Shown here: positions 26,279 to 27,034 of the stretch, in pieces
Position numbering within the stretch: position 1 is the first letter of the stretch
How the letters are laid out: each line of letters starts with the position of its first letter
Assembly: GCA_023229365.1 (NCBI GenBank)
Contig: JALNZK010000002.1
Coordinates: 126,343 to 190,342, forward strand
Source: Pseudomonadota bacterium
GTDB taxonomy: Bacteria > Myxococcota_A > Polyangia > JAAYKL01
Length of the DNA stretch: 64,000 nt
Reading direction: 5' to 3'
Translations under genes and position numbers: made by a program
The notes under the pieces: model-generated
Told to the model about the DNA's origin: nothing
The model's input: the letters and a program-made list of their open reading frames with translations, nothing else
Database searches by the model: none

Positions 26279-26523
26279 ATTTCTGCTTTGGTCTCCGCAT
26301 CGACAATAACAAAATCATTAACTATATTCTGTAATCCTTGATATGTTAGATATTTTTTACAGTCCTCTAACATGTCTTTCGCCTCCTGTAGATCGTTAGT
26401 TGCCCACAATCCCACTACAGGATGAATAAGACACCTGTTGTTTCCTTTGTTAAATAATGCGTAAAACATATACACTAAGAGAGTATTTATTTGCCCATTA
26501 TGCCAGCACCACGTAATTTCCAT
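26275..26523 (-). CDS. hypothetical protein
   Basis: 82 aa. Confidence 0.35.
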   Translation of the reverse strand: MEITWCWHNGQINTLLVYMFYALFNKGNNRCLIHPVVGLWATNDLQEAKDMLEDCKKYLTYQGLQNIVNDFVIVDAETKAEI

Positions 26524-26795
26524 TTATTATTTGCAGAAAATGGACTATGATCGGGCTGTTTATATTTGGTGCCTAAAGATAAAGGACTAGAATCTGGAAG
26601 TTTCCATTTTCCACCACCGGAGAAACCGGGTTTGGGGGGCTCTAATGGAACACCGAGACCACGGGGAGACATGGGGCTTGTCGGCACTTTATTTTTAGTG
26701 CCTTTGACACCAGCATCTTGTTTTACCTGAGCCACATCGGCTGCTACTCCTTGTGGCAATGCCATATCAGCTTCTAACCAAGACCTGAAGCTCAT
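26487..26795 (-). CDS. small basic internal-protein-like polypeptide with a CTS-like N-terminus (MSFRSWLEAD)
   Basis: 102 aa, K/G/P-rich. Confidence 0.5.
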   Translation of the reverse strand: MSFRSWLEADMALPQGVAADVAQVKQDAGVKGTKNKVPTSPMSPRGLGVPLEPPKPGFSGGGKWKLPDSSPLSLGTKYKQPDHSPFSANNKWKLRGAGIMGK

Positions 26796-27034
26796 TTCTT
26801 TTTCATCTTTTTGCCATTGGCATTTTGATTAAATTTAGTAGCTGCATTTGCCACCTTAGCCGCCGCATCAGAATCACCTGTGGATTGGGCAGCTATAGAT
26901 TTTTGAGCTAATATTTTCTTTGCGTCTGCCTCTGGATTTGTGCCTTGCTTAAGAGCATTCTGCGTAGCTAATGCCAAATCATTGGCTAAATCATCTTTTC
27001 CAGTCTGTTCACACCATTGTTTATATGTTTTCAT
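26792..27034 (-). CDS. small basic internal-protein-like polypeptide with a CTS-like N-terminus (MKTYKQWCEQ)
   Basis: 80 aa, Lys-rich; first four residues MKTY match the T4 internal-protein CTS. Confidence 0.55.
   Translation of the reverse strand: MKTYKQWCEQTGKDDLANDLALATQNALKQGTNPEADAKKILAQKSIAAQSTGDSDAAAKVANAATKFNQNANGKKMKKK

Follow-up and report, generated by a model that had tools for sequence, protein, structure and literature searches.

Two adjacent genes on the minus strand of a 64,000-nucleotide stretch of contig JALNZK010000002.1 (hereafter the window) encode small basic proteins of 80 and 102 amino acids (aa). Both start with a short leader that also heads 15 other proteins of the window and resembles the capsid-targeting sequence (CTS) of the internal proteins (IPs) of phage T4. 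We see about even chances that this leader is the counterpart of the T4-type capsid-targeting signal and that both proteins are internal head proteins travelling with the DNA. The N-terminal specificity of the leader, its unrelated cargo, its portability, its match to the T4 CTS and the T4-type head genes of the lineage support this reading. The novel element is a CTS-like leader whose Glu register is shifted, which prefers Trp and which is attached to a much broader cargo than in T4, in an uncultivated clade of huge phages. The two genes are located as follows:

26792..27034, minus strand: gene of the 80-aa basic protein, start MKTYKQWCEQ; leader MKTYKQWCE, residues 1-9, at 27008-27034
26487..26795, minus strand: gene of the 102-aa basic protein, start MSFRSWLEAD; leader MSFRSWLE, residues 1-8, at 26772-26795

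The N-terminal leader and the T4 capsid-targeting sequence

The leader follows the consensus M-x-[TSN]-[FY]-x-x-[WF]-[LIVMC]-E. Among the 110 open reading frame (ORF) calls of the window, the strict pattern [FY]..[WF][LIVMC]E occurs 12 times at the N-terminus, i.e., within the first 15 residues, compared to 0.17 matches expected from composition (Poisson, ~1e-18). The ~18,000 other positions contain two further matches, both of them at mis-called starts. After start correction and with close variants included, 17 window proteins carry the leader, and these proteins are mutually unrelated beyond it. An earlier interpretation made from the letters alone (the sequence-only reading) had treated the CTS-like start as a feature of the pair; it is indeed present in both proteins but is not peculiar to them. 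A sample of 45 N-termini from the window, the uncultured phage LR756511 and related loci yields the logo M-(K)-[TSN]-F-[KR]-Q-W-L-E. The first aromatic residue occupies position 3 or 4 in 35 of these leaders, Trp is the second aromatic residue in 33 (Trp content of the window proteome, 2.0%) and Glu is present in 43, most leaders having been chosen with a Glu-requiring pattern.

The leaders encode the same residues with differing codons, and no common DNA was found upstream of the leader genes. Hence, conservation acts at the protein level. AlphaFold models contain a short leader helix in both the 80-aa and the 102-aa protein, and the leader is predicted to form a short amphipathic helix. Furthermore, the leader is a portable N-terminal element because it is present in some and absent from other orthologues of the CCA-adding enzyme and because a linker separates it from the body of the 102-aa protein. 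The nearest CCA-adding enzyme orthologues with a leader start with MVSFMQFLE, MKSFVQFVE, MDFRQFCE and MRFSMWLE, and other orthologues at 46-57% identity are devoid of it.

Outside the window, ~18-20 of the ~1,050 ORF calls of LR756511 (~2%) carry the leader. In 1.07 Mb of head-module loci it was found on 16 of 1,301 calls, every one a variable flanking gene. An exact DNA scan of IMG/VR for MKTFxQWLE returned 17 matches, all at the starts of ORFs with diverse products, with a chance expectation below one by a rough estimate. Homologues of proteins of this clade accompany 14 of these 17 loci, and homologues of T4 gp4 and gp5 accompany the remaining three.

The T4 CTS reads MKTYQEFIAE and is removed by a single gp21 cut (PMC8442874). 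According to amber-suppression work, residues 4 and 7 chiefly govern targeting, and residues 8 and 10 govern processing (summarised in PMC9026906). In the T4 genome (NC_000866), ipII and ipIII start with MKTYQEFIAE and ipI with MKTFKEFTS. The window leaders MKTYKQWCE, MKTFQQFME and MKTFAQWLE likewise combine MKT[YF] with an aromatic residue at position 7. In the 80-aa protein, Y4 and W7 match the aromatic positions of the T4 CTS and are followed by an aliphatic residue and then Glu, and F3 and W6 of the 102-aa protein retain the i/i+3 aromatic spacing of the T4 CTS, shifted by one position. Like the T4 CTS, the window leader is common to otherwise unrelated proteins. Unlike it, the leader favours Trp over Phe at the second aromatic position and heads a much larger and more diverse set of proteins (17 in 64 kb). 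As a positive control, a T4-register N-terminal pattern applied to 165 kb of T4 found ipII, ipIII, gp61.1 and 61.4, and ipI was recovered by the aromatic-pair core pattern. The gp61.1 protein (NC_000866, 18966-19130, minus strand; 54 aa, uncharacterised) has the CTS-like start MKTFKEFIKE and lies outside the known IP genes.

The window pair also resembles the T4 IPs in being small, basic and Lys-rich. The match in size and charge to T4 IPI-III proposed in the sequence-only reading holds against the T4 values (95, 100 and 193 aa; pI 8.9-9.5; 12.6-15% Lys; NC_000866), and without the leader the products would comprise ~71 and ~94 residues, near the sizes of processed IPI and IPII. T4 IP genes are situated among auxiliary genes outside the head module, as are the window leader genes among auxiliary genes; thus, the genomic context of the pair is no objection. 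At the level of sequence, the two proteins are dissimilar to ipI, ipII and ipIII (phmmer) and have no match in PDB or BFVD, which sets them apart from IPI-type proteins. Similarly, phmmer detected no similarity between the mature parts of the leader proteins and T4 IPs, Alt or Mod proteins.

T4-type head genes are present in the lineage. The window contains one of them, which does not carry the leader:

47195..47887, plus strand: T4 gp4-like head-completion (head closure) gene without leader; phmmer 2.9e-12, phrog_218 'head closure' 4.7e-24

Based on this gp4 homologue, the window genome has T4-type head genes. The closest phage-collection record is LR756511, a 595-kb uncultured phage with a 68% identical PrkA, whose 335-378 kb region contains syntenic homologues of 29 of the 110 window ORFs. 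A comparison of LR756511 with T4 proteins identified homologues of gp17, portal gp20, prohead protease gp21 (3.6e-23) and capsid gp23 (9e-36), and a putative scaffold gene (525018-525950) sits between the protease gene (525953-526621) and the capsid gene. The lineage is like T4 in having gp20, gp21 and gp23 homologues. The LR756511 capsid protein has ~290 metagenomic relatives, and relatives were also found on contigs, up to 546 kb and 933 kb in length, that had been filed as bacterial metagenome-assembled genomes (MAGs). The LR756511 head genes, the capsid relatives and the synteny with the window place the window in a clade of huge phages that is widespread and possesses a head module of the T4 type. 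Both small ORFs belong to a huge phage whose core genes are T4-like.

The two small basic proteins and their genes

The sequence-only reading had described two adjacent, co-oriented and overlapping ORFs for basic proteins of 80 and 102 aa, and this description was confirmed with respect to coordinates, strand, overlap and isoelectric point (pI). The stop and start codons share four nucleotides (ATGA). The 80-aa protein has a pI of 9.6, a net charge of +6 and 14 Lys (17.5%), which ranks it second in Lys content among the window ORF calls (mean 8.0% Lys). The 102-aa protein has a pI of 10.1, a net charge of +8 and 12 Lys (11.8%), and Pro, Gly and Ser make up 34% of its residues. Metagenomic homologues were found for the 80-aa (six) and the 102-aa protein (four), with the lowest identity at 50-58%. 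Differences from the homologous contig L002 at codon positions 1/2/3 amount to 24/18/40 in the 80-aa gene and 17/8/46 in the 102-aa gene. On independent contigs, the gene order HldE-like, 80-aa, 102-aa, ~64-aa and ~173-aa is conserved. The homologues, the kept adjacency and the substitution bias towards third positions thus identify both ORFs as genes rather than chance frames. Upstream of the pair lies the following gene:

27042..28445, minus strand: HldE/RfaE-like gene for a bifunctional PfkB kinase and cytidylyltransferase-like protein (Pfam PF00294, PF01467)

The HldE-like gene directly precedes the 80-aa gene with a gap of 7 nucleotides (nt), no promoter-like or terminator-like site was found between it and the pair, and the three genes are probably co-transcribed. 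Downstream, an 82-aa ORF (26275..26523, minus strand) overlaps the 3' end of the 102-aa gene; its start is probably Met19 (26469), giving 64 aa, and its counterpart in relatives comprises 63-64 aa.

Neither small protein matched Pfam or PHROGs at E <= 0.1, and a megablast search of the locus against INPHARED phages gave no match. A tblastn search of both proteins against phages gave only non-significant matches (E >= 0.6), which fell in an Asteriusvirus region and in low-complexity stretches of head proteases from Acinetobacter phages; the Asteriusvirus match was dropped as it overlaps just the 3' end of an annotated coding sequence. Scans of IMG/VR with both family alignments found no relatives, and the 102-aa family had only five matches, one of them spurious, among 1.84 billion cluster representatives. 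For the mature parts of the two proteins, Pfam, PHROGs, PDB, BFVD and the T4 proteins contained no detectable homologue of known function.

In the homologue alignment of the 80-aa family, MKT..QWCEQ and the C-terminal KMKKK are invariant. The AlphaFold2 model of this protein consists of four helices at a mean confidence score (pLDDT) of 67, with residues 71-80 below 50, and this low-confidence model had no significant match in a PDB sequence search or a BFVD fold search. The 80-aa protein would thus be a small helical protein with a disordered Lys tail ending in KMKKK. The invariance of KMKKK could partly stem from translational coupling because the last codons adjoin the upstream side of the start of the next gene.

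The model of the 102-aa protein contains a helix at leader residues 3-11 alone, the remainder being coil (predicted template modelling score, pTM, 0.15). In its family alignment, the linker behind the leader is rich in indels, and the Pro/Gly-rich C-terminal two thirds are highly conserved, with three invariant Lys-aromatic motifs (GGGKW, GTKYK, NNKW). Two remote relatives (P0131 and P0132) keep the leader (MTFRQFLE, MNFRKFLE) and the C-terminal part, joined by a different Gly-rich linker. The 102-aa protein would accordingly be a disordered Pro/Gly/Lys chain. Lys-Trp-Lys peptides stack on nucleic acid bases, which offers a lead to its motifs, and both proteins look suited to DNA binding or neutralisation.

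Proposed capsid targeting and competing explanations

If the leader is a capsid-targeting signal, its aromatic pair would dock the protein onto the scaffolding core during prohead assembly. A gp21-type prohead protease would then cut the leader off after Glu, and the mature basic proteins (~71 and ~94 aa) would remain in the head with the DNA and exit at infection. The cargo of the leader resembles the packaged set of T4 in comprising small basic proteins as well as ADP-ribosyltransferase-like proteins (compare Alt). An anti-defence role of the two proteins, as suggested in the sequence-only reading by analogy to IPI, is possible.

Several points weigh against capsid targeting. The CTS-like character of the starts holds for the aromatic residues at positions 4 and 7, the aliphatic residue and the Glu, but the Glu comes one residue early in the 80-aa protein and the leader Glu generally occupies residue 8-9 instead of 10. 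The leader reads aromatic-aliphatic-Glu (W-C-E, W-L-E) where T4 has Phe-Ile-Ala-Glu. A cut after the leader Glu would place an aromatic residue at P3, and cleavage there is not assured; gp21 sites typically have Leu or Ile at P3. In addition, the residue following the leader Glu varies among the 45 N-termini, whereas T4 gp22 is cut at a Glu-Ala bond (PMC9026906). No conserved head-module protein carries the leader in ~85 related head loci, and ~15% of the window genes, the CCA-adding enzyme included, would be packaged, which is unusual. The association of the leader with T4-core phages could mirror a single clade, to which 14 of the 17 IMG/VR matches belong. The description of the pair as candidate internal proteins is favoured by the T4-type head genes of the lineage, the gp21-type protease of LR756511 and gp4 in the window. 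At the same time, the gp21 and gp23 of the window phage itself would lie outside the 64 kb; genome and metagenome scans for these capsid and protease genes recovered many clade members but not the 340-kb source contig. For this uncultivated phage, we infer packaging, cleavage and ejection from sequence rather than observe them.

The leader might instead be a portable tag for another destination or partner. It could serve as an amphipathic membrane anchor, direct proteins to an intracellular compartment, bind a chaperone or assembly factor of the phage, or act in a system for degradation or timing; the two proteins would then be ordinary small basic proteins of the cell interior. The restriction of the leader to N-termini, the unrelatedness of its cargo and its presence in only some orthologues fit such a tag equally well, and a CCA-adding enzyme as cargo atypical of virions, untagged conserved head-module genes and a Glu register unlike that of T4 speak in its favour. 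However, the match to the T4 CTS at residues 1-4 and 7 exceeds that of a generic amphipathic helix, and the exact leader occurs in IMG/VR only in phages with homologues of genes of this clade or of T4. With 8-10 residues, of which three positions are hydrophobic before polar or charged residues follow, the leader by direct reading also lacks the length and hydrophobicity of a Sec or Tat signal. We regard another destination as conceivable but doubtful. A functional link to the upstream enzyme is unlikely. Here, the two proteins would act with the HldE-like protein, e.g., as accessory subunits in glycan or DNA modification, and the likeness to T4 would be incidental. The short gap, the conserved gene order and the uninterrupted intergenic region agree with such a link, and in LR756511 a small ORF starting with MDFREFFL comes after the HldE homologue. 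Yet LR756511 has this homologue without homologues of the pair, and the sequences of a disordered protein and a low-confidence helical protein with no structural match do not suggest an enzyme accessory role. The leader on 15 other proteins would also be left unexplained.

The common N-terminus could also reflect a constraint on messenger RNA starts or a mobile 5' gene cassette instead of a protein signal, for instance translation initiating on transcripts with a short 5' leader or none, or modules of a promoter plus the first codons that recombine as in the hyperplastic regions of T4. Of the 17 leader genes, 6 have a TATA[TA]A box within the 30 nt before their start, compared to 3 of ~96 other genes (Fisher p = 3e-4). 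It lies 6-25 nt before the ATG of the leader genes starting at 3105, 39795, 45775, 49975, 49995 and 54476, none of which has a Shine-Dalgarno-like sequence. Furthermore, only 3 of 21 leader codons have synonymous changes between the window and L002, compared to ~30% overall, although this sample is small. The box may represent a phage promoter class with very short 5' leaders. A role of TATATA as late promoter was rejected, as the capsid genes of the clade carry Shine-Dalgarno-like sequences and no box (they are operon-internal). Against an RNA-level or cassette origin, Leu, Ile, Glu, Phe and Lys/Arg are encoded by differing codons in the leaders and the upstream DNA is not common to them; 11 of the 17 leader genes have no box and several are operon-internal. 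Trp, a rare residue with a single codon, predominates at the second aromatic position (33 of 45), and the peptide is kept in remote family members despite diverged DNA. We consider such an origin quite improbable. That the ORFs or the motif are chance features is practically negligible; small size and low-complexity composition alone would favour it, and conserved homologues, conserved synteny, the third-position bias and the motif enrichment of ~1e-18 contradict it.

Returning to capsid targeting, we tentatively propose, with somewhat less than even confidence, that the leader is an ancient capsid-targeting signal common to T4 and to a clade of uncultivated huge phages found worldwide, and that the injected set of proteins can be read from the sequence. 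This set would then include several ADP-ribosyltransferase-like enzymes, the CCA-adding enzyme and numerous small proteins that are basic or disordered, a packaged cargo far larger and more enzymatic than that of T4. Nearly all that is known of huge phages comes from metagenomes, and the majority of their genes lack an assigned function. If the leader is such a signal, the proteins that enter the cell together with the DNA at the onset of infection could be picked out by sequence pattern alone. This is the class in which T4 keeps the anti-restriction protein IPI and the host-takeover enzyme Alt. The interaction between the CTS and the scaffold of T4 would also greatly predate the T-even internal-protein loci and be in much wider use than these, and the leaders might be used as short tags that bring foreign proteins into the heads of other phages.

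Related systems, leader-bearing cargo and genomic context

In giant phages of the phiKZ/SPN3US type, propeptides of inner-head proteins are cut after Glu by a gp21-related prohead protease and are thought to target proteins into the prohead (PMC5694885). These propeptides resemble the window leader in being N-terminal elements on many proteins. They differ in that they are mostly longer than 100 residues with an (S/A/G)-x-E motif, compared to 8-10 residues in the window, and the head genes of the lineage are T4-type, not phiKZ-type. Encapsulation peptides of bacterial microcompartments and cargo-loading peptides of encapsulins are likewise short terminal amphipathic elements that load unrelated enzymes into a shell. 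This is an analogy only: their sequences are unrelated to the leader and they are not removed by a maturation protease. No microcompartment or encapsulin shell genes were seen in the window. A text search of the literature for the motif returned nothing relevant, and among the matches listed the phrase 'capsid targeting' was not found in literature on huge, jumbo or mega phages.

In addition to the pair, the following window genes carry the leader or a variant of it:

3105..3464, plus strand: 119 aa, MKTFQQFME; leader, TATATAA box upstream
7631..8452, minus strand: 273 aa, MEFKNWLE; leader, no Pfam or PHROG match
8703..9929, plus strand: 408 aa, MKYPKFNKFLE; leader
9930..10388, plus strand: 152 aa, MNTSFNEWLKLHE; variant leader
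38033..38692, plus strand: 219 aa, MQFKQWLLHE; variant leader
39795..40022, plus strand: 75 aa, MKTFAQWLE; leader, TATATAA box 9-11 nt upstream
40024..40773, plus strand: 249 aa, MNFKLWIE; leader
44318..44506, minus strand: 62 aa, MLSINFKNWIE, end KKKKKKKLTK; leader, highest Lys content in the window
45233..45775, minus strand: 180 aa, MTLSFRQFME followed by a Gly/Pro-rich stretch, pI 9.4; leader
46229..47035, plus strand: 268 aa, MNFRLFLE; Tpt1/KptA-like (ADP-ribosyltransferase superfamily), Pfam PF01885 6.4e-6, phrog_13493
47884..48462, plus strand: 192 aa, MTFRIWLE; leader
48758..49975, minus strand: 405 aa, MVSFMQFLE; CCA-adding enzyme / poly(A) polymerase family, PF01743 from residue 39
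49995..50639, plus strand: 214 aa, MNFRNWIE; leader, YHGT motif, phrog_13493 as in 46229
54476..54829, plus strand: 117 aa, MSFRQFVE; leader
54826..55242, plus strand: 138 aa, MKFKQWLE; YYHGT motif, weak match to the exotoxin A catalytic domain (PF09009, 0.018, below cut-off)

Most of the leader-bearing cargo has no match in PHROGs, and tblastn of two leader-bearing enzymes against phages gave none. Several leader proteins are similar to the ADP-ribosyltransferase superfamily, which recalls T4 Alt, a packaged ADP-ribosyltransferase trimmed by gp21, and if packaged they would be delivered with the DNA as Alt is. They form a leader-bearing cluster on the plus strand (46229-47035, 47884-48462, 49995-50639 and 54826-55242) with YHGT or YRG motifs. 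Unlike Alt, ModA and ModB, to which they have no sequence similarity, they presumably possess motifs of the H-Y-E/Tpt1-like type, as opposed to the R-S-E type of Alt, and the Alt propeptide (MELITELFDE) is devoid of the aromatic pair of the leader. The N-terminal half of the 408-aa protein is rich in Lys, and a long acidic tandem repeat of DEDELG lies close to its C-terminus; the protein resembles scaffold or inner-body proteins, and its LR756511 homologue starts with MDLKSFSEFLR. The LR756511 homologue of the Gly/Pro-rich 180-aa protein starts with MTLGFRQFVE. Paralogy of this protein (45233-45775) with the 102-aa protein was rejected, the similarity being compositional only.

The gene content of the window includes PrkA, DUF444 (YeaH-like), SpoVR, a split PolIII-alpha and the CCA-adding enzyme, as well as thymidylate synthase, dCMP deaminase, DHFR, Dda-like and UvsX-like proteins, a GIY-YIG homing endonuclease and a transfer-messenger RNA (tmRNA). 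In LR756511, a second, diverged gp21-type protease paralogue (242240-243133, minus strand; 5.6e-7 against T4 gp21) is encoded far from the head module. Contigs of the clade from GTDB genomes (L019-L023) were deposited within MAGs of Chloracidobacterium, Bacteriovoracaceae, Neisseriaceae, Acidimicrobiaceae and Acidobacteriaceae, and the source of the window is likewise filed under an NCBI MAG, 'Proteobacteria bacterium' (locus tags M0R80_01995 and M0R80_02000). The occurrence of huge-phage contigs in bacterial MAGs of unrelated phyla looks like mis-binning. On L023, a 933-kb contig of an 'Acidobacteriaceae' MAG (CAVSYW010000005.1), a capsid homologue with 60% identity (10001-11438) contains eight in-frame stops under table 11, suggesting that this relative uses an alternative genetic code.

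The PrkA, DUF444 (YeaH-like) and SpoVR trio (16293-23948, minus strand) is syntenic with 343.5-349.0 kb of LR756511. A 445-aa ORF (13410-14747, minus strand) holds only the PHP domain and the start of the NTPase domain of PolIII-alpha, consistent with a split or truncated replicative polymerase, and its homologue in LR756511 is much longer (335838-339377). The tmRNA (6247-6591, minus strand) encodes the tag peptide ANDYVALAA, which we take to resemble proteobacterial tags and which may hint at the host. The GIY-YIG homing endonuclease (36665-37474, plus strand) is similar to T4 SegB, SegC, SegD and SegE, and its gene adjoins those of dCMP deaminase and thymidylate synthase on the opposite strand.

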